Positions 45 to 54,230 of a stretch of 64,000 nt of DNA are shown piece after piece. Location of the stretch: assembly GCA_030390025.1 (NCBI GenBank), contig CM059431.1, positions 151,840,001-151,904,000 of the forward strand. The letters run 5' to 3'. Numbering within the stretch: position 1 is the stretch's first letter; each line of letters begins with the position of its first letter. A program made the translations under genes and the position numbers. The notes below the pieces were generated by a model. That model was not told where the DNA came from and made no database searches. It saw only the letters and a list, made by a program, of their open reading frames with translations. The DNA comes from Squalus acanthias (taxonomy: Eukaryota).

Positions 45-3010
45 ATAGTGTCTCTTCTGTCGCTTCCCTAGATTCCTTTAAAATGAACGAATGTAATCCG
101 TCTGATGCAGGGCATTTATCCTGTTTGAATTCGATTAGTTTATTTAATAGTTCTCCTTTTTAATTTTAAATGCAGTTATATCATTTCTAATCTCATTTTC
201 CGATGTCACGTCCAACTGACCGTCTCCCTGGTAAATACTGAGGTAAAGTAATTATATAATATTTCTGGAATTTCGCTATCGCTGCCTTTAATTTTATCCA
301 GACCGTTCCTTAATAGCCGTATTCCCATCCCAAATTTCCTTTTTATTTATGTGCGTAGAATATTTTATTAAGTTGTTTTATGTTTCTTGCTAATTTAATC
401 GCAAGTTCCCCTTTGCCTTCCTATTGTTTTTTTTGACTTTTCTATTATCTTCGTAATCTCCCTTGCCATGATCTCCCCTGTTGTCCATTTTCTCAGTGTA
501 TGCCTCTCCTTATCCTCATTTTTTCTCTCATGTCTTTATTCATCCATGGCGTCTCATTAGTGCTCAGTTTGTTCTTGAATTTTAGTGGAATATATTTTCC
601 TGGACCTGCTGAATAAATGTTTCCCATTGTTGTTCTACATCATTGCTTGCCAATATTGTTGTACATTTTATTTTCCAAGTTCTTTTCTCAGTCCCTCAAA
701 ATCGCATTTTCTCCAATCTATTACCCTGTTCGTCGTCATACTTATGTTCTTCTCAATTATTACCTGTTATCGTATTATATTATGGTCAATATTTCCAAGA
801 TGCTGCCCCACTTTTACTTCTCTTATCTGCTCTGTTTTATTCCCCATTACTCGATCCAGTAGCTAATTCTCCCTTTTCGACTTCTTACCTATTGGGTTCG
901 AGAGGAGTACTTTGCACATAGTAGGAACTCCATTCCCTTATCCCCTTTAGCTACGTCTTCTGCCCAATTAATTCGGGGCAATTTAATCTCCACATGTTTT
1001 TTTATTATTTTTAATAATTTCTCTCATTTGTTTCCAAATTTCTTCCTTCATCTCTTCTTCCACCATTAGTGGTCTGTAGACCTCCTCTAGGAGTGTGATT
1101 CATCCTTCATTATCTTTTATCTCTATCCACTTGAATTATATTTCTGTCTTACTGAGAGCTGCGTCATTTTTTCTACTGCCATTATGTTTTCTATAATAAG
1201 CACAGCTACTCCAGCTCCCCTTTCCCCTCTCTATCTTTTCTAAATATACCCTGCAATGTTTAATTCCCAGTCCTGATTTTTCTGTAACCAGGTCTAAGTA
1301 TTCCCTACAATATCTGGTTCCTCGCAACATATTAGTGCCTCCAGTTCCCCTGTTTTTTACGGACATAGTGCACATTGCAGTACAGAGAGTTTAGCTCATG
1401 TTTAATAGCAGTTCTTGTAACTTTATTTTTAATCATATTTTTACTCTCTAGTTCTATAACTCTATTTATTACCTAGCGCCTATGTCCTCCCTTAGTTCTT
1501 TCCTTCCTATGCTCTCAGTTCCTGTTTCGTTTATATTTAGCCTGGTTTCATTTCTTATCGATCCTTGTTACGAATGCTCCGTGCATTCAGAAAAACAGCC
1601 TTTAATTTTAACGTTTTACCCTTATTCCTTGCTTTCTCCTCATTCACTGATGCCCTATTACCGTTAAGCTCTCTGTCCTTTCCTGTCACACTCTGCTTAT
1701 CTTTACCCAAAGCGAAAAACTGCTCCATTGCCTTGACTTTTAGTTGGAAGGCCCATCAACAGTCCGTGTTATTCGATTCACCAGGATACAGGTCCCAGCC
1801 CGGTTTAAGTGGAGCCCCTCCTAATGGAACAGCTTACTCTTTTTCCAGAACTTGCGCCAGTGCCCATGAATCGAAACCTGTTCCTCCCAAACCATTCTTT
1901 CAGCAAATCCTTCAACTCTCAGTTGTGCTTATCCCTATGGTAATTTGCACGTGGATGAGGTTACAATCCAGAAATTATTATTTTGAGGTCCTGCATTTTA
2001 AATTGTATGCTCGCTCCTCAAACTCTCTCAGCAGAAACTCATTCCTAGTTCGACGTATGTCATTGGTTGCTACTTGGACCACGACCACTGAACCCTTCCC
2101 CTCCCCCTCCAAATGTTTCTCCAGCTGCGGGGCGATATCCTTAATCCTGAAAGGCAACAGAGCCTTCGGAACACCCGGTCGTGGCTGCAGAGAACAGTAT
2201 CTATCCCCCTGACTATACTGTCCCCATACCACAACTACATTCATTTTCACTCCCCCCACTGGAATGGCCTCCTATACCACGGTACCATGGTCAGTTTGCA
2301 CATCCATCCTGCAGACTTTGCCCTCATCCACACAGGCAGCAAGAACATCATACCTGCTGAATATGTATTAAGCCGAGGCTCCATCAGCACTGCCCCTTGG
2401 GTCCTCTTACCAGCCTGAGTCACAGTCACACCCTCCTGTCACTGAGCACTAATCTAAGGGGTGTGACTGCCTCCAGGATCAAAGTGTCCAGGTAACTCTC
2501 CCCCGCGCTGATGCCTCGCAATGTTTGCACCTCGGTCTCCTGTTGAACAACGCCGAGCTGAAGTTCTTGAGTTGCAGGCATTAACTGCAGACGTGGTCGT
2601 CAGCGATCGCGATGCTCGCCACAAACATTCCACTTGATGCTGTCAAGGCACACAACCTGCACTGCCATCACTATACAAACTCGTTTTAGTTATTTAATTA
2701 ATTAATGCTAATGCATTCAATTAACTGAGCTCATGCTTTATTTTTTAACGACTTACTACATCTTGTTAAAGTTATAGGTTGAACCCACTTTGGTAGCTTC
2801 GAGAGCAAAATAAGCTGCAATACACACCAACCAATCAACTACCTGCTGTCCGGTGTCGTCACTCCTTGATAATGTGTTGTTGTTTTTGAATTACCAGAAT
2901 AAATATGCCGCTGCTGCTCAGGTCTGCTCCGCCCCAGGACCTTTTCTCCCGCTGCATTTATGCCGCCGCTCCTCATGTTGCTCAGGTCCGCTTTCATGGT
3001 TCTGTCCTTT
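45..3010 (-). mobile_element. Degenerate CR1 LINE (5'UTR, ORF1 esterase, ORF2 endonuclease/linker; 3' part missing)
   Basis: Minus-strand remnants VVVVQVATNDI...LKCRTSK (ORF1 SGNH domain, 1978-2259) and endonuclease remnants near 1136-1400. The 5'UTR motif caccaaccaatca-cctgc is shared with the CR1 at about 59165-59190. Confidence 0.8.
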
Positions 3011-3981
3011 CTGGTACTGAGCAATTAGAGGAATGTACTTGATAGCTTGGCCACAAGAAACATCGGAACCATGCAGGGGGAGTATCTAATCAAATATCGA
3101 CAGAACCCCTAGCCCCCTCTCCCAGCTTTCTGTAGATAGCCAGAAAGGGTAGGAATGGATTGTATCGGATGCCTCCAGCTGCCTGATCTTGGGTTATCGC
3201 TGTGTGTGCTGAAGTGTGGTGTTGCTCGTTAATACGATACCAGCATGCGATGTGCATGATGAAGATGCCCTGAAGAATGGGTCTAAGACATGGTCAGTCA
3301 CTCTGAAGTCAGCACTACAAGAAATGGTTAACGTGGCTCTGGATAAAGTAATGTGTTAAGCAAATGGGTAGAGATCTGCAGAAGAGAATAGATCGAGATA
3401 GATATATGATGCTGATGAGATATAGTTTCAGTGTCGGCCTTAAGTAATCGAACGCCAACAGTGGGGTATTGTAAAGAAAGAGTTAATCATACTGTCCTAA
3501 AGTTTTCTAATATTAAGCTATATTGGTTGATCTTTCTTTGCGTTAATGTATAATATTTAGCTTTTGCCTGTTAAGCAGGGATGTACAAGTCTACTTAAAG
3601 TAACAGTGGACTGATGTGCCAGGTCCGTTCCTTCAGCACTGGTCAGTCTCATGAGGAAGCAATTCGAGATTTATGTAACACATGTCATTGCAAACTGGTT
3701 CATGCATTTCAGAGAACTTTAATCATTTGCTACAATGTGCGAAGACAGTTGTTTCCAGAACGGAAACATCGGGGCATGCATCATCATTTTAATTGGTACG
3801 AATGATCCAGAAATAAAAGTAGATTTATAATTAATGTTTTCACTCGGTACAATTGAAATGCTGTGTATCAAGAGTGAAACTATCGATAAGATAATGACTC
3901 GAATGGAATTACGCTTGTAAACACACCAGAAAAAGTGATTGTTTAGAAAGGAAAACTATCCTTATTGATCAACGATAGGTC

Positions 3982-4827
3982 GAGGGCGCTAATGGGGTGC
4001 AAAACAACTCGATACCGGGCTCGCCGTTTTTTTTTTGCGCCGCTCGCGATATTGACCAGACATTTTGCGGCGCTAAACACTACCACCACGATCTACTGCG
4101 CCCACAGATCGTGACGTCAGTCGATCGTGCAAGGCCCCGGTGGTGCCCGGACCGGAGATTGAGTGGTGGCCCCTTCCTTACCTCCTGCCGCTAGATGCGA
4201 CATGTTGAGGGGTGCTTTCTGCAGCCGGGAAGGGACAGGGGAACGCTATTTAAAGCTGATCGCTTCCTGCCTTTTTTTTATCTGTGACATTTTTGCACCA
4301 CGCATTCTGAGAGAGAGGGAGAGACGTCTACAGAGATTCAACGCGGTGTGAAGGAGTTTTGGGTCCTGAGCAGCACTTTGCAGGTTTATTTTGATTTGAC
4401 CATTCTTGTATCGATTTAGAAGAGACTTTGTGGGCTGCACTCTGAGCTCTTTCCCTGGGTCTCTCCATTGTTTTTTCCAGCATATTTGATGTGCAAGTCT
4501 CTCCAGGGCGAGATTCAAGGCTGCAATGAGCAGGGGTGGATGGAGAGCAAGGTCGACCCTACCCTTTAAGAAGTGGCCGGTGCCAGTGTGTCTGTGTTCC
4601 ATTGCTGACTGACATCACATGAGCTTCGCCAGCGCTCTGAGGTGGTGCCTCACTCCACGGCGGTCGCGCCTTAAGAGATGTGTGTAGCGCCTGATTTCGC
4701 ACTCAAATCACCTCCAGGGACGATAGAAGCCAAGTTTGCTGTCGGAGGCGATAATTAGCACCAGGTGCTAAAGTTTGCCTCTGGCCGATAATTGCGCCTC
4801 AAACGGGGCGTTAACGAATTTCTCCCC
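3982..4827 (-). mobile_element. Non-autonomous PIF/Harbinger derivative, one terminus truncated
   Basis: Ends in AATTTCTCCCC (TIR GGGGAGAAATT, compare GGGGTAGAAATT at 12641). Both halves resemble the reverse complement of the subterminal regions of the 12641-17013 element. No ORFs. Confidence 0.75.
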
Positions 4828-4829
4828 AT

Positions 4830-5895
4830 TGTATATTTATAGCACCATTAATGTAGTAAAACGTCACAAACTGCTTCACAGGATTATTATAAGACAAAAA
4901 TTTGACACTGAGCCACATAAGAAAAAATTAGTGCAGGTGACCAAAAGCTTGCTCAAAGTGATCGGCCTCAAGGAGCATCATAAAGTAAGAAGGAGCGTTA
5001 AAGATGCGGAAAGGTTTAGGGAGCGAGTGCCAGAGCACAGGGCCTAGGCAGCTGAAGGGACAGACACCAATGCTTGAGCGATTATAATCAGGGATTCTCA
5101 AGTGGGTAGAATTGGAGGAGCACAGATACGTTGGGGGTTTGTGGGCTGAAGGAGATTACAGAGATAGGAAGGGCTGGGACCCCGGCGGGATTTGAAAACA
5201 AGGATGAATATTTTGAAATAAGGCAGTGCTTAACCGGGAGACAATACAGATCCGCGAGCAGAGGGGTGATGGGTGAACGGGACTTGGTGCGAGTTAGGAC
5301 ACATGCAGCAGTGTTTCGGATGACCTCAAGTTTACATAAAGTAGAATGTGGGAGGCCAGCCAGGAGTGCTTTGGAATAGTCAAGTCTAGAGGTAACTAAG
5401 GCATGGATGAAGGTTTCAGCTGCGGAGGAGCTGAGTCAGCAGTGGAGATGGGCAATGTTATGGAGGTGTTAGTAGGCGGTTTTATGCCGTTGATATGTGG
5501 TTGCAAGCTCATTCAGGGTCAAATATGGCACTATGTTTGGAAGCTGTCCTCAGCCTCAATCATGTACTTGGGAGAGGGATGGAGTCGGTGAATATGGAAC
5601 GGAGTTTGTGGAGGGGACTAAACAATTGCTTCGGTCTTCCCAATATTTAATTGGAGAAAATGTCTGCTCATCCAGTACTTGATGTCGGACACACAGTTTG
5701 ACAATTTAAAGATGGATGGAGGGCTCGAGAGCAGTGGTGATGAGGTAGAGCTGGGTGTCGTCAGCGTACGTGTGGAAACTGACGCCGTGTTTTTGGATCG
5801 TGTCGCCAAGGGGCAGCATATAGTTGAGAAATAGGAGGGGATCCAGGATAGATCTTGGGGGTCCTTAGAGGTAATGATGCGGCAGTGGGAAGAGG
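4830..5895 (-). mobile_element. L2 LINE 3' fragment
   Basis: Minus-strand LSNCVSDIKYWMSRHFLQLNIGKTEAIV (L2 ORF2 C-terminal motif) and an L2-type 3' end at 4830-4885. Confidence 0.8.
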
Positions 5896-7109: not shown

Positions 7110-8014
7110 TTTAATTCTTCATTTAATTAACCAATATCAAAGTCAATGTCCATGGAGATTTCACCACCTTCTTCAGCTCTTCCCTGAGTTCGGTTCGGGG
7201 TCGCTGCATAAATGCACGTGTTTGGACAGGAACTCAAATACATGAGCATATATCCGCTTTCAGCCAGGATTTATTCAGGGGCTTCATAATCATCCTTGTC
7301 GTAAAAGATCAGGTTGTCCGTGAAAATACTCACGGTAGCTGTCATCCACAACAGTAAAAAGCTGCCCAATACAGTGAGGAGTAAAATGATGGATTTTCTC
7401 CGGCCCTCCTCTCTGGATCGTTCGGATTTTCACTGCTGTTGCCCCGGAGATCTCTGCGGCCCCTACTGCTACTACAATACGTCTGACTGTTAAAAAAATA
7501 AACATTCATAACAAAGCAAAAGTCAGACATGGAACTAAAATACTTTGCAGTCGGAAGAGCGATACACATCCAGACGATGAAAAAAAGGCTTCATTGGAGC
7601 GGCATCCCCAGGAAACATTGTTAATGATTCGTTGAGATTCATGGGAGAAGCGAAAGGGGATATTTTCTATACAGAACAGCACAGTGGCAGTTATTAAACC
7701 TGCTGCGATAGTTCACACTGTGCAATATTTTATTTTAAACTTCTGACAACATATCGCTAGAAATCGGTCAAAATTGAACGAGTCTGCAAACCACACCGAC
7801 ATATCCATCGTGACAGCATTGATGTAATGAATGAACTTACACACGGCAGTGTAGGACAGGACTGAATGCGGAATGTGGTAACAGAAAATCAGAAGCACCA
7901 GTAAATGGGAGATGATGACCTAAGATCTGCTGCTGCCATGGCCACCATGAAGACCGATATACAGTTGGAAAGGCCGCAATTTTCGCTGGAGAGAATCAGG
8001 ATTGTCAGTAGGTT
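7110..8014 (-). pseudogene. GPR139-like GPCR pseudogene (copy 1), exon 2
   Basis: Fragments NLLTILILSSENCGLSNCISVFMVAMAAADL, FNFDRFLAICCQKFKIKYCTV and FLTVRRIVVA lie in different frames. Colinear with the intact paralogs; multiple frameshifts. Confidence 0.9.
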
Positions 8015-8853
8015 CTGCGAAAGGAAGAGGGAGAAGAGGCCAGTAACGGTGATACTCAGATAAATCTCACAGGATATTGTTGGGGAATGCTCAGATGTGT
8101 CCCTACTTAGCGTTACGTGCACTGATTTGTTTTAGTATATAGGCGAACGTTGAGGAGATTTGATTTAAAATAAAAGAAACATTGAATATTCAATATGGAG
8201 GGTCTCTAATTCCGACTCCCTTCCAGCACACTTCAGACAGCGGTTAAATATAATGTCGCTGCAATTGCGGGAAAGATATGGCTTCAATAAAACATTCAGC
8301 TGAGAAAAAAATATTTCCTACATGTAGAAAACTCTGCGCTTTTTCTATTTACGATCGCCCAGCGGGGAGCTGCTCGGTAACAGAGCGGGAGCTGGTGTAG
8401 CCGCGAAGGTTTTTTGCGGCCGAGCGGAGTGGAGCAACTCCCTGAGCGGCAATTGTTGCTCATAATATCTTTCTAAATCCCCTGTCGGGGGAAGGTTCCT
8501 GCAATCCGAGCAAATACCAACTTATAATAAACAGGGAACAAAGGTACACATGAGATTGTAACCAGGCACACTAGGCAGACATTCTCTAGTGATCCATATA
8601 GTGTTGCATGGGCCGCGGAATTAGGCCTCGCACTCCCTCAGTACAGAGAGGAAACTTGAGCGCCCGGTGCCCACGATCTACCGGACAGAATAGCGCTTCA
8701 CCGGCCGCGCGGACTGGTAGGATTCCCACAGATATTTATCAAATTATCCCGGTGGATAAATGACTCTGCAACGGGGACCTTCATGGAATCTGTTACAAAT
8801 CATTAGCAGTGAGACACTCAATAACTATTAAACAACAGGATACATTGACTTAC

Positions 8854-8923
8854 TGAGAAAACCAAAGGCTGCAAGAACATGATAGTATATGTCCTTTATC
8901 TGAAGAATTATTGGCCGTCCCAT
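8854..8923 (-). pseudogene. GPR139-like GPCR pseudogene (copy 1), exon 1
   Basis: 70 nt encoding MGRPIILQIKDIYYHVLAAFGFL, followed by a GTAAGT donor. Confidence 0.85.
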
Positions 8924-8944
8924 TTTTAGAAGATTTTGTGAATT

Positions 8945-11495
8945 GGCCATCATTTATATTAGAGTAGGGTCGCCATCGTTTATATTAGAGTAGGGTCACC
9001 ACCAGTAATTTTAGAGTAGGTATATTTCCAGTAAATTTAGCCTAGGTTTACCACTTGTAATGTCAGAGACGGGTCCCCACCAGTAATGTTTGAGCCGGTT
9101 AACTACCAGCAATGTTACCGTAGGGTCACCGCCAGTAATGTTAGATTAGGTCACCACCAGTAATGTTTGAGAAGGTTCACCTCCAGTAATGTTAGTGTCG
9201 GGTCACCACCAGTAATGTTATAGTAAGGTTACCGCCAGTAATGATAGATTAGGGTCACCACCAGTAATGTTAGATTAGGTCAGCACCAGTAATGTTAGAG
9301 AAGGTTCACCACCACTAATTTCAGGGTAGATTCACCACCAGTAATGCTCGAGTAGGTTCGTCCCCAGTAATGTTAGCCTTGGGACATCAACACTAATGTT
9401 AGTGTAGCGTCACTACCAGTGCCGTTCGAATAGCGTCACCACGAGTAATGTTATACTCGGTTCACCACCAATAAGGTTAGAGTAGATGTAACACCAGTAA
9501 TGTTATTATAGGATCATCAGCAGTGATGTTGGAGTAGACTCACCATCATTAATGTTAGAGTAGGGTCACCAGCAGTAATGTAAAAGAAGGTTCACTGCGA
9601 GTAATGTTAGTAGGGTTACCACCAGTAATGTTAGATTAGAATCACCACGAGTAATGTTAGAATAGGGTCACCACCAGTAATGTTAGAGTAGGGTCGCCAC
9701 CAGGAATGATAGAGTCGGGCCACAACTATTAATGTGAGACTAGGTCCTCCACCAGTAATGTTAGTGTTGGTTCGCCAGCGTTAATGATAGTCAAGGTTCA
9801 CCACCATTAATGTTAGAATATAGTCTACACCAGTAATGTTAAATTAGCATCCCCGACAGTAATATTATATATGTGTCACCACCAATAATGTCAGCGTTGG
9901 TTCACCACCAGTAATGTTAGAGTTGGAACACCAGCACTAATGTCAGAGTAGGTTCACCACCAATAATGTTAGACAAGGTTTAACACCAGTAATGTAAGAG
10001 TCGGGTCAATACCAGTAATGTTAAAGTAGGGTTATCACCGGTAAGGTTAGAGTAGGGTCATCAGCATTAATGTTAGAGAAGGTTCATCACCAGTAAAATA
10101 TAAGTAGGATCACCACCAGTAATGTTAAAGTATTGCCATTACCAGTAATGGTAATGCAGATTCCCCGTCAGTAATGTTGGAGTAAAGTCATCACCAGTGA
10201 TGTTAAAATAGACTCACCACAAGTAATGCTAAAGTAGGGTTACCGCCGGTAATGGTCGAGTCAGGTCCACAGCAGTAATGTTCGAGAAGAGTCACCACAA
10301 TTAATGTTAGTGTAGGGTCACCACCAGTAATTTTAGAGTAGGGTTACCACCAGTAATGTAGAGTAGGGTCAACACCAATAATGTTAAATTAATGTCACCA
10401 CCAGTAATGTTAAAGTATGATCACCGCCAGTAATATTACTGTAGAGTCAGCAGCAGTAATGTTAGGCTAGCGTTACCACCACTAATGTTAGAGTAGGGTC
10501 ACCACCAGTAATATTAAATTAAGGCATCCTCCAGTAATGTCAGAGTAGAGTCAACAACACTAATGTTGGATTCAGGTCACCGCCACTAATGTTACAGTAA
10601 GCTAACAACCAATATTTTTAGATTAGGTTCACCACCAGTAATATTAAAGTAGGGCATCCTCCAGTAATGTTAGAGTAGGGTCACAACCACTAATGTTAGA
10701 GTCGGGTCGCTACCACTAATGTTACAGTGGGCTCGCAACCAGTAATTTTAGAGTACGGTCACTACCAGTAATGCTAGATTACGATCACCACCAGTAATGT
10801 TAGAACAGCTTCACCAACATTAATGTTAAAGTAGATTCACCACCATTAATGTTAGAGCAGATTCACCACAAGTAATGTTAGAATAGGGTCAGCACCAGAG
10901 ATACCAGTTTAGAGTCACCACGAGTAATGTTAGAGTAGGGTCACCACCAGTAATGTTAGAGTAGAGTTACTAGCAGTAATGTTAGTGTATAGTCCACAGC
11001 AGTAATGTTAGAGTAGGGTCAACACCAGTAATGCTAAAGTAGCGTCACCACCAGTAATGCTAGAGTAGAGTCACCACCAGAAATGTTAGAGTAGGGTCAC
11101 CAGCATTAATGTTAGAGCAGATAAACCAGAAGTAATGATAGCGTAGCGTCAGCAACAGAGATAGTAGTTCAGAGTCACCACCAGTAATTTTAGAGTAGGG
11201 GCACCACCAGTAATGTTAGAGCAGATTCACCTCAAGTAATGTTGAATTAGATTCACGGCTACTAACGGTTGAGGTGGGACACCAGCAGTAATGTTAGAGA
11301 AGAGTCACCACCAGTAATATTATAGTAGGGTGACCACCAGTAATGTCACAGTAGAGTCACCGCCTGTATTGGTAGAGTAGAGTCACCATCAGTAATGTTA
11401 GAGTCGACCCCCCGCAGTAATATTAGAGAAGGGTCGCCACCAGTATTTTTACGACCATTTCACCAACAGCAGTGTTAGCGCCGTTTCATCACCAC
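8945..11495 (+). repeat. 26-bp minisatellite array, roughly 95-100 diverged copies
   Basis: Consensus CCACCAGTAATGTTAGAGTAGGGTCA repeated head-to-tail with no unique spacers. Confidence 0.95.
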
Positions 11496-11871
11496 AATGT
11501 AAAACCAATTTTAGATATGTAATGGATGAGAGAAGATTTCACCCGATTATTATGAGGCCCCAAGAACCTAACGCCTTGACCGGGAGTGGTGTTCCCTTCA
11601 GAAATCACATCTCTGCCGCAAAGCTTACTTTCCGATCATTAATTTTAATGGGCGGATTTTCATGTACTGAGGGACACAATTTCCCCATTGGCATCCCCGG
11701 TGCACTGTAGCGGAAAATTGTTTGTTACGTGATTGTAAGAAACGTCAGTTATTGTGGATCCTGGTTTTCTCATGGGGCACGAGTGCTCTATAAAGTGGTA
11801 GCATTTACGGATCTCAGATACATTCCAGTCAGAAACGTAAGCCGGACAGAATTCACACAATATTCTATAAA
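11496..11871 (+). promoter_or_regulatory. Putative promoter/5'UTR of GPCR copy 2 (TATAAA at 11789-11794)
   Basis: TATA box about 80 bp upstream of the ATG. The region is alignable with the reverse complement of 51943-52355 upstream of copy 3. Confidence 0.6.
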
Positions 11872-11941
11872 ATGGCACGGCCAATAATTCTACAGATAAA
11901 GGAAATTTACTATCCTGTTCTCGCAGCATTTGGTATTCCCG
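11872..11941 (+). CDS. GPR139-like class A GPCR (copy 2), exon 1
   Basis: 70 nt encoding MARPIILQIKEIYYPVLAAFGIP plus G, then GTAAGT. The phase-1 donor matches the acceptor at 17122. Confidence 0.88.
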
Positions 11942-12998
11942 GTAAGTCCGTTTATTCTGTTGCTTAATAGCTGTTGACTATCTCACTGCTAATACTTATG
12001 TAACAGATTCCGAGAATACTCTCATTGCAGAGTCACTTATCCCAGCGAGCTGAATTGGTGAATATCAGCGGGAATCCGACCAGTCCGCGCAGTCTGGACA
12101 TTCGAGCCTGAGCATCGGGCGCTCAGGATTCCTCCCTTGACTGTGGGAGGGCGAGGTTGATTCCCCGGCCCCTCCAACAGTATTTTGTTCACTGCAGAAT
12201 GTGTTGCTTAGTGCCCATGGTAATCATCTCATTTGTGCCGCTGTTCCCTGTCTATTCTAAGTTAATAATTGCTCGGACTGCAGCCACCTCCACCCAACAG
12301 GGGGCTTTCAAACAGATTTTGAGCAATCACTGCCGCTCGGCTGCAAATAACTTCTGCGGTTCCACTAAGTCTCGCTCTGTTCCCGAATAGCTCCGCTCGC
12401 GGTGATCATAAATAGGAAAATCTCAGTTGATCGACGTAGATAGTATGTTTGCATTTCAGCTGAATGTTATATTTGAATTCATATCTTTGCAGTAAATGCT
12501 GTAAAATTATTTTAAATATTTTTCGAGGACTGAAGGAACTATGCTGGAAGGACGCGGGATTTTCAGTCCCTCTTGTGTTCAAAGATTTCTTCTTTTTAAA
12601 CATGCTGCCGCCAACGCTCGCCGATGTATAAAAAGTATTAGGGGTAGAAATTAGGTCACGCCCCATTTGGGGCGCAAATATCGTCTGGACGCAAATATTA
12701 GCGCCTGGCGCTAATTATCGGCACTGACAGGAAACTTCACTTTTACCGCCCCGGGAGGTGAGTGGAGCGCTAAATTAGGCGCTGCACACCTCTCTTAAGG
12801 CGCAAAGGCCAAGGAGTGAGGCGCTAACTCAGCGCACGAGCGCAGCGCAGCTGCTGCCAGTTAGCGAGGGAACACAGACACAATGGCGCCGGACACTTCT
12901 TAAAGCGGGGGGGGGGCACTTGCTCCCCAGCCACACCCTGCTCATTGCAGCCTTGAATCTCAGCCTGGAGAGACCTGTAATCCATATTGCTGCCAAGC

Positions 12999-15045
12999 AT
13001 GGAGAGGGTGAGAGAACGCGCTCATCGCTTCACCGAGCGGGCCTTGGATGCTCTGGTTGACGCAGTGGAGCGCAGACGATGCATGCTGTTCCCGGAGAGT
13101 GGCAGGAGGCCTTTGCCACGCGAGTTCAGAAGAGTGTGGAGGGAGGTGGCTCAGAGCGTCTCCTCCAGGAGCATGGTGCCCAGGACCCATGTTCAATCCC
13201 GCAAAAAGTTCAACGACCTCACTCGGGTCGTCAGGGTGAGTGGCTTTTTCTCAATATCTCTCCATCCCTCCATCTCAACCTCACTCTATGGCCAGAGGGT
13301 CTTAAAACCCCAATGCACAACACTCATCCAACACCTATGGCCCTTTCATCAAACACACACACACATTTCACACTTTGCATAGAGTAAGGGCTATTCACCT
13401 ATGGGAGGCACATCAGGCAAGACCATGGCTGCATACAGTAAGGGCTATTCACCTATGGGAGGCACATCAGGCAAGAACATGGCTGCATACAGTAAGGGCT
13501 ATTCACCTATGGGAGGCACATCAGGCAAGACCATGGCTGCATACAGTAAGGGCTATTCACCTATGGGAGGCTCATCAGGCAAGACCATGGCTGCATACAG
13601 TAAGGGCTATTCACCTATGGGAGGCACATCAGGCAAGACCATGGCTGCATACTGTAAGGGCGATTCACCTATGGGAGGCACATCAGGCAAGACCATGGCT
13701 GTATATTTACTCAGATGCTGTCCTTTTTCTTGCAGGCTAAGCTGGCTCATAATCGGAGACAGCAGCAACGGACGGGTGGAGGGCGGCTTCAGCTGCAACC
13801 CCTCAGCGATCTGGAGGAGCACGTCCACAGGATTGTGGCAAGCCGGGTGATCGGTCCCGTCACCACTGGAGACGCCGACCCCGTTGTGGACAGCAATGGT
13901 AAGGTCATCACCGTTTTGTACTCTGTCCTTCCACTTTTCCCTCACAATACCAGCCTTTGACACTTTCAATCCAACTTGCTAACTCGCTGCACTTATTCCT
14001 CCCTTACTGCCACCCTGTCCTCACGCTAAAGCCACTCTTGTACCTCCCTGCTTTCAGATGGTGATTCACCAGCTGAGGAGACGGGCCCTGAAGCTGCCAC
14101 TGGGAGTGATGCTGCAGCTGAGGAGGAAGAGGAAGCCGGAGCATCAGTGCCACCCTCTCCCGAGGAAGCCCATGCCCACACTAGGAACACGCCTTCCCCG
14201 GAGGGGAGCAGGGGGGAAGGGGCTGATGATGGTGAAGCTCCAGGACCAAGCGGGCTGCAGCAACGCCATGGGGGGGGGGGGGGGGTAGGAAAGAACGGGG
14301 GCCTTCTCCCCAGAGGGAGAGTATGCCAGACACTCCTACTGCAATGGACGCAGAGGAGGAGCGGCTGATTGCAGAAATGAACAGCCAGGCGGTGGGCATG
14401 CACACTGAGCTCATGGGTGCAGTGGGAAGGGTGCCCGAATGCACTGAATCACTGGCAAGGAGTGTGGAGCACTTCGCTGTAGCACAGGCGGATGCCACAC
14501 TAAAGCTTAGTGCTGCAATTCAGTCACTGGCTGCCAGGAACCCATCTGAGACTGCTCTCATGCAGACTCAGATTGAACCACGCGAGCACTGACTGCTGCC
14601 ATCCTCGATGGTTCGTGCACATGTCCCCGGGGCTGTCACCGCGCCGCAGCAGGCCAGCAATCTGTTCTCCGGCAAATTGCTCCGGATGCTGAGGGTGCTG
14701 CCCCGTGGGAGTGCCAGTGTGTCGGGCGAGCAGGGAGTTGCTGTCCTCTCTCACGATGACAGCATTCCTGCTGCCAACACTGTCACTTCTCCACTGCACT
14801 TGCCACCGCCTGTAGGACAGACTGCTGCCGCCCATGCAGAGTTGGTGCAGTCTGCAGCCGGGCCCTCCAGGCCCAGAAGTGGTCGAGGCCTTCCTTCAGG
14901 GTCATCTGCAGTGTCAGGGTCTGACGAGCAGCAGCCTTCCACCAGCCTTGCTGCAGACACTGAGGTCCCATTACGGAGGAGCAGTAGGGTTAGAAGGGGG
15001 GAAGTGCGCAAGGGAAGGAGATCACCCTCGAAGGGCAAAAAGTAG
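12999..15045 (+). pseudogene. Harbinger Myb/SANT-like DNA-binding protein gene; exons 12999-13235, 13736-13898, 14058-15045; frameshifts in the last exon
   Basis: RFTERALDALVDAVE...WREVA...KKFNDL joined to AKLAHNRRQQQRTGGG through GT-AG introns with matching phases. Frame breaks occur at the poly-G (about 14270-14285) and near 14580-14610. Confidence 0.8.
13383..13704 (+). repeat. 54-bp tandem repeat, 6 near-identical copies, in Myb gene intron 1
   Basis: Unit AGTAAGGGCTATTCACCTATGGGAGGCACATCAGGCAAGACCATGGCTGCATAC. Confidence 0.95.
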
Positions 15046-15339
15046 GAGGTGTGCCAAAATGCTGTTCATTTTTTTATTAAAGGCCGAGGTTCATGGTCCA
15101 ACTTTTGTTTAGTGTTTTGGACATTATCTCCAGGTTGTGAGAACCAGTTATGTTATTGACTGTTTTTTTGTGTTTATTTCAATGAGTTTGTCATGAGGAA
15201 TTGACACACACAGAGTTTGTAAAATAAATAAGTTTCTGTATTCAAAATATACATGGCTGCTGGTTGGAATTATTGGTGCCTTGGTCGGCTTAGGGGTTGC
15301 GTGCTGGGTTGATTAGTGTTTGTAGCAATGGCAGGAGCC

Positions 15340-16499
15340 CTAGAAGCGGCTTCCTATTAGTCGTTGACGGACGGCCCTTGCAGTTTGACCATTGTGGGCA
15401 GCCCTCCCGCCTTGGTGCTGCTGATGATCATCGTCCTCGTCCTCTTCCTCCTCTTCCTCCTCCACCTCTGGTGGTGCTACAAGGCCTGGTGGCATTGGCT
15501 GGGTCCTGAGGATTGCCATGTTGTGCAACATGCAGCACACGACTACGAAGTTCGAAACTTGCTCAGGCGAGTACTGCAGGGCTCCTCCGGAATGGTCCAG
15601 ACAGCGGACCGTTGTTTCAGCACGCCGATTGTGCGCTCAATAATGTTCCTGGTTGCTTGATGGCTTTCATTGTACCGCAGCTCAGCAGGGGTGTTTGGCG
15701 TACGGAGCGGTGTCATCAGCCAGGTGCTCAATGCGTACCCCTTGTCCCCCAGAAGCCAACCAACTGGCTGATGCGGTGCCTCGAAAACTTCTGCCACAGT
15801 AGTCTGGCGCAGGATGAAAGCATCGTGGCAGCTGCCCGGATAGTGGGCATTGACAGCGAGTATCACCTGTCTGTGGTCACAGACCAACTGCACATTCAAG
15901 GAATGGAACCCCTTTCTGTTCCTGAATTCCTCTGCATTCTCTCGCGGAGCACGCAAAGCCACATGCGTGCAGTCAATGGCGCCCTGCACCATGGGGAAGC
16001 CCGCTACCCTCGCAAAGCCCAGAGCACGGTCACGCTGCTTGTCTGGGGTCATAGGGAAAGAGATGAAGTCTCGTCTCCTTCTGAAGAGGGCATTGGTGAC
16101 CTGCCGGATGCAGCGATGCACCGCAAACTGGGAGATATTGGCGAGGTCCCCAACAGCAGCTTGGAATGAGCCAGTGGCGTAGAAGTTCAAAGCCACTGTG
16201 ACCTTCACTGCCACCGACACAGACGTCCTGGACCTCAGCTGAGGCTGCAGATCTGGCTGCAGCAGGTGGCAGAGCTCAGTGACCACCTCCTTGCTGAATC
16301 GCAGCCTTCGCAAACACAGCTCCTCGGACATATGGATGTAGGAGAGCTGTTCACGATATACCCTGGGAGGGTAAGCTCTCCTGTACATGCGCCTGATGGC
16401 CCTCCTCCGTCTGGCCATCATTGCCACTCTCTCTCTGCGTCTCAGTATCCTCCGATTCAGCTGGAGCAGGACGACGCCCCCAATCATTGCAGCCCCCAT
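15340..16499 (-). pseudogene. Harbinger (HARBI1-like) DDE transposase with one frameshift
   Basis: GAIDCTH, LLGDKGY and IERTIG catalytic motifs are present. Restoring one missing base at about 15608 gives KQRFRCLD...CCMLHN. The start codon is uncertain. Confidence 0.9.
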
Positions 16500-17122
16500 A
16501 TTCTCTTTGCCAGAAAAGTAATGAGGTACAGCAACTAAAGTAGCAACAAAGTTAGGATGAATAGGCAAAACTACCTCACAAAGCGTTGAGTCAATGTAGA
16601 AGTCTCTCTCTCTCTCTCTCCCCGAATCTCTCTCTCTCTCTCAGAACGAGTGGTGCATAAATGTCGACCACAGAAAAAGACAGGAAGAGGCCCCCTTTAG
16701 ATAGCGCCCCCCCCAGCCCCACACCGATTGATAACGTTCCAGTCTTCCAGGTCGTTGGAAGCGCCAGGCGGTAAGGCAGGGGGCGCCACTCAATTTCCGC
16801 TCCGGGGCGCCCCAAGGGCGTTGCACCAAGGAATGACGTCACAATCTGCGCGCGCAGGTGGTCGCAGCGGTAAGTTTTAGCGCCGCCGCACAATCTCAAG
16901 TTAAGTTCTCGAGCGGCGCAAACAGCGCTGCGCCCGGGCGTTAGCGACTTAACGCCCCATTAGCGCCCTCTTAAGGCGCTAACGGGAGGCGCAACAAAGT
17001 GAATTTTTACCCCTTAATGTGCATAACCCTAAATAGGGACATATCTGAAATTTCCCCCACTTTATGCTTTAAGGTATAGATGGGTGTCACCGTGACATAC
17101 CTCGTTTCCCTCTTCCTTACAG

Positions 17123-18030
17123 CGAACCTACTGACAATCCTGATTCTCTCCGGAGGAAATTGCGGCCTTTCCAAATGTATCTCTGTCTACATGGTGGCCA
17201 TGGCAACAGCAGATCTACTGGTCATGATCAACAATGTGATACTGTATCACACTTTTACATATCACTTTCCAGGTTCTTTCCTGTCCTACACTGCCGTTTG
17301 TAAGCTAATTGTGTACGTGAATTCTCTCGCACTAGATATGTCGGTGTGGCTTACAGCCTTGTTCACATTTGACCGATTTGTAGCTATATGTTGTGAGAAG
17401 TTTAAAACAAATTATTGCACCGTGAAAACGGCTGTCGCTGTTGTAACAACCGCCACTGCCCTCTTCTGTTTAAAGAACATCACCTTTTGGTTTGCATACG
17501 AACCTGAGCGAATAACTAACAATGTTCCCTGGGGATGTCGCTCCAGATTGGAGTTTTTTCTATCAGCTGCAGGTACAGCGTTCTCCTGGTTACAAAGTAT
17601 TTTAATTCCATGGCTACCTTTTGCTTTGATATTACTGTTTAATTGTTTGACAGTCAGACGTATTTTAGTGGCCAGTAGAGCCCGGAGGAGACTCCGCGAT
17701 CACAGCAGTGAGAGTCACAGCGATCCAGAGATGGAGAACCGAAGAAAATCCATTATCTTACTGTTCAGTGTATCAGGTAGTTTTATAGTGTTGTGGCTGA
17801 CAGCTGCCGTGAGTTTTTTAACGACCAGACTGACAAACCCCGAGCATAATCGAGGCGATTATGCAGCCCCTGCATATGTCGCCACAGAAACCGGATATCT
17901 ACTCATGTATTTGAGCTCCTGTACAAACACCTGCATTTATGCAGCGACCCAAACTAAATTCAGGGAAGAGCTGAAGAAGGTGGTGACATCTCCCTGGGTA
18001 TTGATTCTGACTTTGGTTAAATTAAATTAA
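17123..18030 (+). CDS. GPR139-like class A GPCR (copy 2), exon 2; spliced product 325 aa
   Basis: Acceptor ttccctcttccttacag and an open frame with TM segments. Motifs include AMATADL, FTFDRFVAIC, ENRRKSIILL and SSCTNTCIY. Confidence 0.92.
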
Positions 18031-46496: not shown

Positions 46497-49334
46497 GAAA
46501 CATAGAAACATAGAAAATAGGTACAGGAGTAGACCATTCGGTCCTTCGAGCCTGCACCGCCATGCAATGCGTTCATGGCTGAACATGCTACCTCAGTACC
46601 CCATTCCTGCTTTCTCGCCATACCCCTTGATCCCCCTAGTTGTGAGTGTTATATCTAACTCCCTTTTGAATATATTTAGCGAACTGGCCTCAACAACCTT
46701 CTGTGGAAGAGAATTCCATAGATTCACCACTCTCTGGGTGAAGAAGTTCCTCCTCAGCTCAGTCTTAAATGGCTTCCCCTTAATCCTTAGACTGTGACCC
46801 CTGGTTCTAGTTTTCCCTAACATTGGGAACATTCTGCCCGCATCTAATTTGTCTAAACCAGTCAGGATTTTAAATGTCTCTATAAGATCCCCCCTCATTC
46901 TTCTGAACTCCAGAGGATACAAGTTCAGTTGACCCAATCTTTCTTGATATGTCAGACCGGCCATCCCAGGAATCAATCTAGTGAACCTTCGCTGCACTCC
47001 CTCAATAGCAAGAATGTCCTTCCATAAGTTAGGAGACCAAAACTGCGCACAAAACTCCAGGTGTGGCCTCACCAAGGCCCTGTACAACTGCAGCATCACC
47101 TCCCTACTCCTGTACTCAAATCTCCTTACTATGAAGGCCATCATTCCGTTTGCTTTCTTGACTGCCTGCTGCACTTGCATTCCCACCTTCAGTGACTGAT
47201 GTTCCATGACGCCGAGGTCTCGTTGCACCTCCCCTTTCCCTAATCTGCCACCATTTAGGTAATACTCCGCCTCTCTATTTTTACCACCAAAGTAGATAAC
47301 CTCACATTTATCCACATTGTACTTCATCTGCCATACATTTGCCCATTCACCCAACCTGTCCAAGTCACTCTGTAGCCTCATAGCATCCTCCTCATTGTTC
47401 ACACTGCCTCCCAATTTAGTGTCATCCGCAAATTTGGAGATATTACATTTAATCCCTTCGTCCAAATCATTAATATATAATGTAAACAGCTGGGGTCCCA
47501 GCACCGAACCCTGCGGTACCCCGCTGGTCACTGCCTGCCATTCTGAAAAGTACCCATTTACTCCTACTCTTTGTTTCCTGTGTGCCAACCAGTTCTCAAT
47601 CCACGTCAACACATTACGCCCAATCCCATGTGCTTTAACTTTGCTCACCAATCTCTTGTGTGGGACCTTGTCGAAGGCCTTCTGAAAGTCCAAATACACC
47701 ACATCTACTGGTTCCCCCCTGTCCACCCTATTGGAAACATCCTCAAAAACTTCCAGAAGATTTGTCAAGCATGATTTCCCTTTCACAAATCCATGCTGAC
47801 TTGGACCTATCTTGTCGCCACTTTCCAAATGGTCTGTTATGACATCTTTAATAATTGCTTCCATCATTTTACCCACGACCGATGTCAGGCTGACCGGTCT
47901 ATAATTCCCTGCTTTCTCCCTGCCTCCTATTCTAAAAAGAAGGGTTACATTGGCCACCCTCCACTCCATCGGAACTGATCCAGAGTCTAAGGAATGTTGA
48001 AAAATGATCGTCAATGCATCCACTATTTCCAAGGCCACCTCCTTAAGTACTCTGGGATGCAGACCATCAGGCCCCGGGGATTTTTCAGCCTTCAGTCCCA
48101 TCAATTTTCCCAATACCTTTTCCCGAATAATAAGGATTTCCCTCAGCTCCTCCCTCTTACCAGATCCTCTGACCCCTTTTATTTCCGGCAGGTTGTGTGT
48201 GTCCTGCACAATAAACACCGAACCAAAGTACTTGTTCAATTGATCTGCCATTTCCTTATTCCCCATTACGACTTCGCCTGTTTCCGACTGCAGGGGACCT
48301 ACGTTTGTTTTTACTAACCTCTTTCTTTTTACATATTTATAGAAGCTTTTGCAGTCCATTTTAATGTTCTCTGCAATCTTTCTTTCATATTTTATTTCCC
48401 CTGCCCTAATCAAACCCTTCGTCCTCCTCTGCTGAGTTTTGAAGTTCTCCCAGTCCCCGGGTCTGCTGCTACTTCTGGCCAATGTGTATGCAACTTCCTT
48501 GGTTTTTATACTATCCCTGATTTCCCTTGTTAGCCATGGTTGAGCCACCTTCCCTTTTTTATTTTTACGCCAGACCGGGATGTACAATTGTTGTAGTTCA
48601 TCCATGCGATCTCTAAATGTCTGCCATTGCCCTTCCACTGATAGCCCCTTAAATATCGCTTGCCAATTTAACCTCACCAATTCACGCCTCATACCCTCAA
48701 AGTTGCCCTTATTTAAGTTCTGGACCATGGTCTCTGACTTAACTGTTTCCTTCTCCATCCTAATGTAGAACTCCACCATACTATGGTCACTCTTCCCCAG
48801 GGGGCCTCGTACCACAAGATTGCTGATTAGTCCTTCCTCATTACACAACACCCAGTCCAGGATGGCCTCCCCTCGAGTTGGTTCCTCAACATATTGGTTT
48901 AGGAAACCAACCCTTAAACACTCCAGGAAATCCTCCTCCACCGTATTGCTTCCAGTTTGTGTAGCCCAATCTATATGCATATTAAAGTCACCCATGATAA
49001 CTGCCGTGCCTTTTTTGCACGCACCTCTGATCTCCTGTTTCATACCCTCCCCCACCTCACTACTGCTGTTTGGAGGTCTGTACACAACTCCCACTAACGT
49101 TTTCTGCCCTTTGGTGTTCTGCAGCTCAACCCATATTGATTCCACATCCTCCAAGCTGATGTCCTTCCTAGCTATTGCATTAATCTCCTCTTTAACCAGC
49201 AATGCTAACCCACCCCCTTTTCCTTTTATTCTATCCTTTCTAAATGTTGAATATCCCTGGATGTTCAGTTCCCAGCCTTGATTGTTCTGGAGCCACGTCT
49301 CTGTAATCCCAATCACATCGTATCCGTTAACATC
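46497..49334 (-). mobile_element. Young 5'-truncated CR1 with an uninterrupted 907-codon ORF2 segment (46593-49316)
   Basis: Continuous EN-RT frame, (CATAGAAA)n tail, TATTA duplicated at 46492-96 and 49335-39. Confidence 0.97.
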
Positions 49335-50228
49335 TATTACCCAAGTTCCGAATCAATGTCCAGGGTGATTGCACCATCTTCAACAGCTCTTTCCTGAATT
49401 TTGTTTGGGTCGCTGCATAAATGCACGTGTTTGTACAGGAGCTCAAATACATGAGCATAAATCCGGTTGCAGAGGCGATGTATGCAGGAGATGTATAGTC
49501 GGGTCGAACTAAAGTGACAAGGGAGTTAATTAAATAACTAACGCAAGTTGTCAGCCACAACAATATAAAACTGCCCGATACACTGAACAGTAAAATGATG
49601 GACTTTCTCCGGCTCTCCATCTCTGGATCGCTCTGATTCTCACTGCAGTGACCCCGGAGTCTCCTGCGGGCTCTACTGGCAGCTAGAATACGCCTGACTG
49701 TCAAACCATTAAACAGAAATATCAAAGCGAAGGGAAGCCCTGGACATACAACAGTTTCGAACCAGGCGAATGCTATACCTATAGGCGAGGTAAAAAAGTC
49801 AATTTTCAAGCGGCAACCCCAGTGAATATTGTTAATGATTCGTTCAGTTTCAGATGCAAAAGCAAAGGGGATATTGTCCAACCAAAGCAGAACAGAGACT
49901 GTTGTTATGACAGCGGCCGCAGTTCTCACTGTGCAATATTTCGTTTTAAACTTCTCACAACTTATCGCGACAAAGCGGTCAAATGTGAAGGTGACGGTAA
50001 ACCACACGGACATATCGAGGGCAACAGTATTCAAGTATATAAGCAACCTACAGGCGGCAGTGTAGCCGAGGAATGAATGTGGAAAGTGATATGTAAAAAC
50101 GCTGTGCAGCAGCACATTGTTGACCATGACCAGTAGATCTGCTGTTGCCATGGCCACCATGTAGACCGAGATACCTTTGGAAAGATCACATTTTCCTCCG
50201 GAGAGAATCACAATTGTCAGTAGGTTCG
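49327..50228 (-). CDS. GPR139-like class A GPCR (copy 3), exon 2; spliced product 323 aa
   Basis: Acceptor tccctcttccttgcag and an open frame with AMATADL, FTFDRFVAIS, ESRRKSIILL and SSCTNTCIY. The last two codons and the stop come from the CR1. Confidence 0.92.
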
Positions 50229-51872: not shown

Positions 51873-51942
51873 CGGGAATGCCAAAGGCTGCGAGAGCAGG
51901 GTAGAAAAACAAGCGGACCATTTGAATTGTTGGCAGTGCCAT
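51873..51942 (-). CDS. GPR139-like GPCR (copy 3), exon 1
   Basis: 70 nt encoding MALPTIQMVRLFFYPALAAFGIP plus G, then GTAAGT; phase matches exon 2. Confidence 0.88.
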
Positions 51943-52355
51943 TTTAATTTTAGCAGAATATGTGACTTCTGTCTGGCTTTATGGTTCGCATCACAGTGTA
52001 CACACGATCCATAAACACTCTCCTTTTATAGAATACTCGGAGCCCCGGTGAGAAATTAAGTCACAGGACAATTGGCGTTAGTTACAGTCACTTAACAAAC
52101 AAGGCATGATTTTCCGCTTCAGTGTGCCTGGGACAACAAAGGGGACCTTTTACAACTTAGTTCATGAAAATCCATCAATTCAAATGAATAAGCGGGAACT
52201 CATAGCAGATGGAATGTACTGTGCACATTCACCGTGATCCCCGAAGGGAAGTTCCCACACGGGCATTGCGTTAGATTACTGGTGCCTCGTTATAATTCGT
52301 GAAATCTTAACTCATCCATTAGATCGTTAAATTTAACTTTGCACCATGATGAAAA
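51943..52355 (-). promoter_or_regulatory. Putative promoter/5'UTR of GPCR copy 3 (TATAAAA at 52030-52024)
   Basis: TATA box at the same spacing as in copy 2; homologous to 11496-11871. Confidence 0.6.
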
Positions 52356-52757
52356 ATGGTGGTGACCCTTCTCTAACCTTACTTCCGGTGACCCTACTCT
52401 AACATTACTGGTGGTGACCCTGCTCTAACATTACTTGTGGTGACCCTACTCTAACCTTACAGGTGGTTACCGTTATCTAATATTAATGGTGAGATCCCTG
52501 CTCTAAAATTACTGGTGGTGACCCTACTCTAACATTACTGGTGGCGACCCTTCTCTAACCTTACTGGTGGTGACTCTACTCTAGCATTACTGGTGGTGAA
52601 CCTACTCTAACATTACTGGTGGCGACCCTACTCTAACATTACTGGTGGTGACTTTATTCTAACATTATTGATGTTGACAGTACACTGACGTTACTGGTGG
52701 TGATCATATTCTAACATTGCTGGTGGTAACTCTACTCTGACATTGCTGGTGGTGATC
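52356..52757 (-). repeat. 26-bp minisatellite, about 15 copies, same unit as 8945-11495
   Basis: Plus strand GGTGGTGACCCTACTCTAACATTACT is the reverse complement of the first array's unit. Confidence 0.95.
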
Positions 52758-52759
52758 AT

Positions 52760-53643
52760 AACCTTCAGTGCACTATGGCAAGTATATCCTTTCTTTGGTA
52801 AGGAGAACAAAACTGCACCCAGTACCAAAGTCCTGTTTCACTGTAGTAGTAAGATATCCTTGCTCCTGTATTAAAATCCTCTTGCAATGAAGGCCGACAT
52901 ACCATGTGCCTTCCTCACCGCTTGCTGCACCTGTATGTTTGCTTTCAGTGACTGGTGTACAAGGACACCCAGGTCCCTTTTAACATCACAATTTTCTAAT
53001 CTATCACCATTCAAATAATACTCTGCCTTTCTCTTTTTCCTATCTAAGCGGTTAACTTCACAAGTATCCACGTTATACTGCATCTGCCATGTATTTGCCC
53101 ACTCACTCAACTTGTCTAAATCTCCTTGAAGCCTCTTTGCATCCTCCTCATAACTCACAATCCCACCGAGTTCCTTGTCGTCAGCGAGATTGAAAATATT
53201 GCATTTGGTTCCCTCATCCAAATCATTGATATATATTGTGAATAGCTGGGGCACACACGCTGATATCTGCGGTACCCCACTAGTCACCGCCTGCCACCCC
53301 GAAAAAGACTCATTTATTCCTACTCTATGGTTCCTGTCTTGTAACTCATTGTCAATCCATGCCAGTATATTACCCCCAATCCATGTGCTTTAATTTTGCA
53401 CACTAACCTCTTATGTAGGACTTTATCAAAGGCCTTCTGAAAATCCAAATACATCACATCCACTGGTTCTCCCATGTCTATTCTACCATTCACATCCTCA
53501 AAAATGTCCAATAGGTTTGTCAAACACGAAATCCCTTTCATAAATCCATGCTGACTCTGTCTAATCCCGTTGATATTTTCTAAATGTCCTGTTGTCACAC
53601 CCTTTATAATAGCCTCTGTGTTATCCCTGCTACTGATGTTAGG
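52760..53643 (-). mobile_element. CR1 RT internal fragment
   Basis: SQHGFMKG...DFQKAFDKV and YINDLDEG. Confidence 0.9.
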
Positions 53644-54230
53644 ACACGCTTGATAATTGATAGGAGACGACTGATAATTGATCATACACGCTTGATCATT
53701 GATAGAAGAAGTTTGATAATTGATAACACACGCATGATAATTGATAGGACCTGCTTGATAAGTGAAAATACACGCTTGATAATTGAAAGGACACGCTTTA
53801 AAATTGATAGGAGACGACTGATAATTGATAATACACGCTTGATATTTGATAGTACATGTTTGATAATTGATAATACACGCTTGATAATTGATAGGACACC
53901 GTTCGTAATTGACAAGCTACGCTTGATAATTGATCAGATAAGCTTAATTATTGATAGGACATGTTTGGTAATTGACAGGAGACGACTGATAATCTTTAAT
54001 ACACGCTTGATAATTGATAATTCACAATTGATAATTGAAAGGACGCACGTGATAATTGATAGTACACGCTTGATAATTAGTTGGAAATGCTTGATAATCA
54101 ATAATACAAGCTTGATAATTGATAATACACGCTTAATAATTGATAGGACATGCAGGATAATAGATAATAGATGCTTAATAATTAATAGAACATGCATGAT
54201 AAATGTTAAAACGCGCTTGATAATTGATAC
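53641..54230 (+). repeat. 21-bp tandem repeat, about 28 copies
   Basis: Consensus ACACGCTTGATAATTGATAGG; translates as TRLIIDR repeats. Confidence 0.92.

Follow-up and report, generated by a model that had tools for sequence, protein, structure and literature searches.

A 26-bp minisatellite attached to the promoters of GPR139-like receptor genes in an elasmobranch

The receptor genes and their neighborhood

The window, by which we mean the whole 64-kb stretch of DNA analyzed here, is CR1-rich elasmobranch DNA. A class A GPCR gene (7tm_1) with two exons occurs in it three times, in one case with a large transposon in the intron:

7110..8944, minus strand: gene 1, a pseudogene, with exon 1 at 8923-8854 and ATG 8923
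11872..11941, plus strand: gene 2 exon 1, 70 nt, ATG 11872, GTAAGT donor
~12637..16994, no strand assigned: PIF/Harbinger-type transposon in the gene 2 intron, with 12-bp inverted ends, TTA flanks, a Myb ORF and a DDE transposase
17123..18030, plus strand: gene 2 exon 2, class A GPCR (7tm_1)
49327..50228, minus strand: gene 3 exon 2, class A GPCR
51873..51942, minus strand: gene 3 exon 1, 70 nt, ATG 51942

Once spliced, both gene 2 and gene 3 have an intact open reading frame, of 325 and 323 aa, respectively, and the two proteins are identical at 220 of 323 residues, with a dN/dS of 0.48. Gene 1, a third, pseudogenised receptor copy that was absent from the earlier note on this DNA, carries two frameshifts and one in-frame stop in exon 2 and adjoins, head-to-head, the first of the two repeat arrays described below (array A). 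The Harbinger element in the gene 2 intron lies ~130 bp before the acceptor, has an internally deleted relative at 4034-4841 and includes a young 54-bp tandem repeat (13376-13705, 6 copies, 97%).

Of 5619 candidates in a protein search with exon 2 of gene 2, 1916 passed E ≤ 1e-10. All of the 120 matches listed come from sharks or rays and most of them bear the automatic NCBI/UniRef name ‘probable G-protein coupled receptor 139’; with best matches that are 76% identical, genes 2 and 3 are members of the elasmobranch expansion that goes by this name. The receptor family is large across sharks and rays. To judge from sequence comparison, the name itself is loosely earned, and the relation to true GPR139 is only a distant one: a profile made from 40 family sequences and run against solved structures retrieved human GPR139 first (E = 1.3e-16, the next structure following at 1.4e-12), and a search of solved structures with a single sequence did not match GPR139 at E ≤ 0.001. 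Positions 3133-3832 of the window are a 68% copy of the 3' flank of gene 2 (18999-19688) in the same orientation, and a fourth family member probably lies to the left of the window. Neither the receptor expansion nor the 26-bp repeat was found described in the literature searched, outside which most subscription journals lie, and the main text of PMC10620051 and of PMC11979771 has no word beginning with ‘GPR’. The promoter-attached minisatellite reported below is real and apparently undescribed.

Promoters and their 26-bp arrays

The following features of the regions upstream of genes 2 and 3 are relevant here:

8945..11445, plus strand: 26-bp minisatellite array A, 96 units, mean 82% to consensus
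11446..11871, plus strand: promoter and 5' UTR of gene 2, with 70.7% identity to the promoter of gene 3
11520..11530, plus strand: TAATGGATGAG, common to both promoters, with its gene 3 counterpart at 52321-52311
11680..11752, plus strand: conserved block of the gene 2 promoter, its edges placed by eye in the alignment with 52070-52143
11789..11794, plus strand: gene 2 TATA box, TATAAA at -83 from the ATG
51943..52356, minus strand: gene 3 promoter, with TATA at 52030-52025, the conserved block at 52070-52143 and TAATGGATGAG at 52321-52311
52357..52757, minus strand: 26-bp minisatellite array B, 15 units, mean 88% to the array A consensus
52773..53643, minus strand: CR1 reverse-transcriptase fragment, ~500 bp of its 3' end missing at the array junction
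53640..54229, minus strand: 21-bp minisatellite unrelated to the 26-mer, 28 units, no indels, with a well-kept CAATTATCA core

Arrays A and B have one common 26-bp consensus, and each is in the sense orientation relative to its own gene (plus for gene 2, minus for gene 3), so that the statement that both intact receptors carry the same array in the same gene-relative orientation is borne out. Repeat calls place array A at 8959-11445 (period 26, 95.9 copies), with three further decayed units that extend downstream of 11445 to ~11513, and array B at 52357-52755 on the opposite strand (period 26, 15.3 copies). These head-to-tail units of period 26 are of minisatellite size, and their numbers agree with the earlier counts of roughly 95-100 for copy 2 and about 15 for copy 3. 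The distance from the array end to the ATG, previously given as 380-410 bp, is roughly as claimed but slightly larger by our measurement, namely 426 bp for gene 2 (358 bp with the three decayed units included) and 414 bp for gene 3. At up to 3 mismatches, the 26-mer has 38 matches in the window vs. none in 100 shuffles; outside the two arrays, it is absent from the 64-kb window at up to 8 mismatches. A telomeric identity of the array is ruled out, TTAGGG occurring once in 2490 bp. An Rfam search gave 0 matches, the exact 26-mer and 22-mer had 0 matches in metagenome and viral contigs (collections that are uninformative for shark DNA), and translations without stops, taken across the junction of array and promoter and along the antisense array, had no matches in a protein search, which is a weak test.

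The two promoters, in agreement with the earlier description of an alignable region with a TATA box and a shared motif, are 70.7% identical, have TATAAA at -83 (gene 2) and -88 (gene 3) and share TAATGGATGAG. The array is attached to this promoter cassette and was duplicated together with it, and contigs from sequencing runs (see below) support the earlier view of the array as part of the duplicated upstream cassette of the receptor family outside the window as well. In gene 2, TAATGGATGAG is no more than 2 nt off the 26-bp register of array A and 102 nt from its last strong core, and this near-register position of the promoter TAATGG hints at an origin of the array in a promoter site; in gene 3, TAATGGATGAG is out of register with the repeat. 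The block at 52070-52143 (~11680-11752 in gene 2) is the best candidate for a core regulatory element, putatively family-wide. Its depth exceeds that of exon 1 in each of the four sequencing runs examined (9125, 3014, 509 and 1133); it is joined to exon 1 in contigs of run X6 (organism B), and contains words, labelled by eye, that may be ETS/E2F-like and forkhead-like. The predicted N-terminal extension of a Heterodontus protein (P0020) matches the translated TATA-to-ATG region of both promoters, and the extension of a Pristis protein (P0072), as judged by eye, is like that of P0020. The extension predicted for a Heptranchias protein (P0062) is a 16-residue tandem repeat, and a different minisatellite seems to lie near this family member. 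Paralogue alignments of promoter, introns and flank have a transition/transversion ratio of only ~0.9, which is low for a vertebrate.

The far ends of both arrays point to rearrangement. Homology of gene 1 to gene 2 stops at 8944, 21 bp upstream of ATG 8923 and exactly at the start of array A, which runs in the orientation opposite to that of gene 1, and the promoter of gene 1 is missing. Thus, the far end of array A is a breakpoint at which this promoter was removed. Gene 1 lies head-to-head with gene 2, its promoter cut 21 bp upstream of the ATG, and the arrangement of the two genes suggests the collapse of an inverted duplication. Array B, as noticed before, ends at a CR1 fragment, with a gap of 16 bp. 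Given that CR1 insertions normally retain the 3' end, which is missing from this one, the far end of array B is likely to be a deletion junction and, with a breakpoint at either far end, the difference between 96 and 15 units would be one of truncation. Past array B, at a distance of 0.9 kb, lies the 21-bp minisatellite. The part of it that is kept best, CAATTATCA, contains the homeodomain word TAATTG and the GATA word TGATAA, with 17 and 24 intact copies, respectively.

The units themselves are highly diverged. Pairwise identity is 70% within array A, 78% within array B and 74% between the two; none of the 4560 unit pairs in array A is identical, array B has two perfect units, and in the tree of units those of array B do not form a clade of their own. 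Mismatches per unit of array A are Poisson-like (mean 4.6, variance 4.3), with a weak 5- and 10-unit periodicity (z ~3.2). Sequencing error as the source of this variation is rejected, given 434 substitutions vs. 5 indels. Divergence outside TAAT, summed over both arrays, is 32%, close to that between genes 2 and 3 (pS 32%, promoter 29%, intron 26%), suggesting that the array was homogeneous when the gene was duplicated and then decayed by point mutation, neutrally at most of its positions. Such star-like decay of an initially homogeneous array would be the simplest history, and the arrays appear to be old, with no sign of current turnover, as opposed to an actively changing VNTR. Indels are rare in the arrays (5 for 481 substitutions, as compared with 47 for 665 where paralogues are aligned outside coding DNA) but, because the unrelated 21-mer is without indels too, we do not count their rarity as selection, and selection on the 26-bp phasing was dropped as a stand-alone argument.

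Conservation within the repeat unit

The earlier note had ascribed to each unit a TAAT homeodomain core and a GGGTCA nuclear-receptor half-site. Both are present in the consensus but not unit by unit: TAAT is intact in 79 of the 96 units of array A and 9 of the 15 units of array B, and GGGTCA in 16 and 5, respectively. At 23% changed per site, GGGTCA is the fourth-worst of the 26 six-mers of the unit, and its second and third G are the most changed positions of all. The half-site is therefore not kept, and we rejected an array of nuclear-receptor response elements because half-sites are not preserved across units.

TAAT behaves differently in array A, where 21 of its 384 positions are changed (5.5%) vs. 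147 of 960 other A/T positions (15.3%; Fisher p = 2e-7). It is the least changed of all 26 four-mers, the excess conservation is present in each third of the array, and on the unit tree TAAT has 5.0 changes per site vs. 11.8 elsewhere in A/T. In simulations of tandem growth, the observed ratio was reached in 0 to 36 of 1000 runs across 12 settings, the worst of which (36 of 1000) combined the TAAT/ATTA context bias measured in non-coding DNA with site heterogeneity. An internal control is provided by AGTA, which occurs twice in the unit and thus makes positions of the same context comparable. In the 96 units of array A, G is changed 25 vs. 28 times in the two copies, whereas the leading A is changed 6 vs. 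18 times (p = 0.015), T 5 vs. 19 times (p = 0.004) and the second A 7 vs. 17 times (p = 0.048). In two TGAA microsatellites, A and T in the same contexts change nearly as often as G.

The claim that TAAT is better conserved than the rest of the unit thus survives controls for context and ancestry in array A but fails in array B, which has no TAAT excess (6 of 60 positions changed vs. 15 of 150 other A/T); three of these six changes are one T>G variant. Furthermore, in introns and flanks, A/T in TAAT/ATTA context diverged at 38 of 221 positions vs. 529 of 2102 (ratio 0.68), and the unrelated 21-mer leans toward conservation of the same core (p = 0.08), so that part of the TAAT signal may be mutational. 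AT-rich motifs are reported to be easily over-called (PMC3247239). In the long array, A-n-TAAT is retained, and the pattern of substitutions is moderate evidence that the homeodomain-type core is under selection.

The repeat in other organisms and the interpretation of the arrays

When sequencing runs were searched for gene 3 plus array B, 23 of them were listed, 20 with part of the query; they come from seven coded organisms plus one unlabelled run, and none is recorded as RNA. Four of the 23 (X1, X6, X14 and X17, from organisms A, B, F and G, respectively) were examined by alignment, at a threshold of at least 80%, to a target that comprises exon 1, the promoter and two repeat units (51330-52414). 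Organisms C, D and E and the unlabelled run have small shares, the source of which could be the repeat or the intron LINE, and these were left unused. In all four runs, summed depth at the two repeat units (28,000-590,000), which is not a copy number, far exceeds that at the exon-1 donor (437-4593), and the lowest listed contigs have a depth of about 9-20. Among the loose ends listed, 23 of 24 are the same 26-mer, in all four organisms; 292 more lie beyond the listing. The ratio of repeat depth to exon-1 depth, again rough and not a copy number, is 88-129 in organism A and 20-600 across organisms B, F and G. The former is roughly that of one 96-unit array per gene, so that gene-linked arrays alone could explain the depth in organism A; the latter, given that depth is not copy number, leave room for a satellite pool independent of the genes. 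Records at least 99% alike to the stretch number 160 of 1448 in X1 and 76 of 733 in X17, and those of X17 suggest near-perfect copies of the repeat. Organism A may be the species of the window or a close relative, and X1 is therefore not independent support for conservation across species.

Physical linkage was judged by a rule of at least 31 letters on the array side. The only listed contig to satisfy it is record 30 of X6 (organism B, 84%), which bridges the promoter into the array with 55 letters on the array side. Records 5 and 8 of X1 extend 27 letters into the array, below the rule, and at 86% identity represent neither gene 3 nor gene 2. One joint in X6 links the conserved block to the repeat, weakly, with a side of 25. 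For organisms F and G, no promoter-array bridge was found among the matches listed (32 pieces, with 3532 further), and the zero depth at 52255-52328 in X14 and X17 is not evidence of absence. Of the 30 contigs listed, 8 are long enough to extend to the start of the array and, assuming no indels, every one of them stops 5-128 letters beyond that point, the pattern to be expected where a high-copy repeat interrupts assembly. The three long ones of these 8 have no array piece among the matches listed. An A>T variant at 52353 was dropped as evidence of linkage because plain continuation of the array gives the same letter.

The explanation that we favor, tentatively and at somewhat below even chances, is an old, promoter-attached array of homeodomain sites that was co-duplicated with the receptor family and is weakly selected. 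The 26-mer would be a minisatellite of old standing in elasmobranchs. In an ancestral GPR139-like gene it would have come to form the upstream edge of the promoter, perhaps via tandem amplification of a promoter TAATG site, and it would then have been copied with promoter and gene during the expansion of the family (two genes here, and contigs for further paralogues). Most likely, it would act as a cluster of homeodomain sites that is redundant and saturating, with one site in every 26 bp and ~0.4 kb from the start codon, the cores of which would be bound by a homeodomain protein; together with the conserved block (~-130 to -200), the array would raise the chance or the level of promoter firing. 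Weak selection would act on the A-n-TAAT core only, with the other 22 positions evolving at the neutral rate in array A, and differences in array length would come from far-end deletions and rearrangements as opposed to a tuned number of repeats.

Several lines of evidence are also compatible with a neutral passenger, that is, a minisatellite that chanced to lie beside the promoter of the ancestral gene and was spread with it by segmental duplication, doing nothing, its TAAT signal resulting from local mutation bias and chance. Indeed, 22 of the 26 positions decayed at the neutral rate, array B is devoid of a TAAT excess, TAAT/ATTA contexts in non-coding DNA show the ratio of 0.68, and gene 3 remains intact although array B lost most of its presumed length; slow shark evolution, as in sturgeon satellites, could keep a consensus without selection. 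We consider this possible but rather unlikely, given the same-context AGTA control inside the unit, the simulations with context bias, in which no more than 36 of 1000 runs attain the observed ratio, and the TGAA microsatellites, where the same A/T contexts change nearly as often as G; the rarity of indels points the same way, with the reservation that the 21-mer also has none. The high depths raise the question of a genome-wide, high-copy satellite in which the receptor clusters are embedded. Bound by homeodomain proteins, it would package or silence these clusters, and it would provide homology for unequal exchange and inversions, through which genes multiply or are disrupted. The summed depth of 28,000-590,000 at two units and the records at least 99% alike in X1 and X17 are in line with such a satellite, a repeat depth of 20-600 times that of exon 1 would also fit arrays far from genes, and both arrays end at rearrangement breakpoints, with the gene 1 promoter lost at an array edge. 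Within the window, however, the repeat is found only at promoters, the ratio of 88-129 in organism A is roughly accounted for by one 96-unit array per gene, and units only 70-78% identical pairwise would be poor substrates for present-day exchange; a satellite of this kind thus seems unlikely as the main explanation.

The idea that the repeat is a copy-number-tunable element, put forward previously, finds no support in the arrays: lengths are set by breakpoints at the far ends, and the absence of identical pairs among 4560 in array A, along with Poisson-like mismatch counts, is not what an active VNTR would produce. A rheostat of this type, with homeodomain and nuclear-receptor sites and with array length tuning the expression of each receptor, would agree with the different lengths of the arrays (96 vs. 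15 units) and with past block duplications as the source of the weak 5-/10-unit periodicity. Given, in addition, that GGGTCA is intact in only 16 of 96 units and that its second and third G are the most changed, we regard it as highly improbable.

The favored promoter-attached array of homeodomain sites can be compared with several known systems. Tandem units of tens of bp that lie a few hundred bp upstream of the start site are known from the insulin 5' VNTR, which the shark arrays resemble in these respects; unlike it, they consist of highly diverged units with no sign of current length turnover, and the array is common to paralogues and several organisms as opposed to a single polymorphic locus. 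Satellites that bind transcription factors include the mouse major satellite, with Pax3/Pax9, and the sturgeon HindIII satellite is a slowly evolving one from fish. The 26-mer is like these in its high copy number, one consensus across organisms and a homeodomain-type core, and differs from them in that its arrays are short (0.4-2.5 kb) and attached to promoters.

In mouse, multimers of the 21-bp homeodomain core of the H element (4x21, 5x21) are reported to raise the probability of odorant receptor choice (bioRxiv 10.1101/2022.05.05.489571; PMC12547500), and the cores of odorant receptor enhancers are reported to be of the Lhx2 type, TAATGA or TAATTG (bioRxiv 10.1101/2022.05.05.489571). If the favored mechanism applies, the shark arrays would have their precedent in these multimers and act in a similar way. 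The analogy drawn previously between these multimers and the shark arrays is a loose one. It holds to the extent that head-to-tail TAAT cores lie near a GPCR promoter and that the receptor belongs to a very large family with clustered genes, but the shark arrays are natural, with 15-96 units of 26 bp, and their core is TAATG-T (array A has 70 TAATG, 4 TAATGA and 1 TAATTG). Furthermore, the genes are not odorant receptors, and neither promoter has an O/E-like site, no match to an O/E (Ebf) consensus being found on the sense strand within 1 mismatch. By these features, we would not class the array as a member of the H-element class. By analogy with the mouse multimers, one can imagine that each GPR139-like gene of sharks and rays has its own array, with some tens to one hundred homeodomain sites, that sets its probability of choice in a sensory system with one receptor per cell. 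On that quite improbable reading, sharks and rays, with very few odorant receptors and many GPR139-like ones, would possess a natural counterpart of the x21 multimer.

A repeat of the kind that is usually masked as junk is fixed at these promoters across organisms with its TAAT core kept, and it may instead be a naturally occurring control element with many sites. Should the array prove to be a passenger, it would still serve well to mark the family in genomes, and rearrangements of the family would be likely to occur at it. If it acts at these promoters, it would be a natural case of an array of transcription-factor sites that travels with an expanding gene family, and a promoter array that keeps its TAAT cores would offer a direct way to learn in which cells the family is expressed and by what means a single member is chosen.
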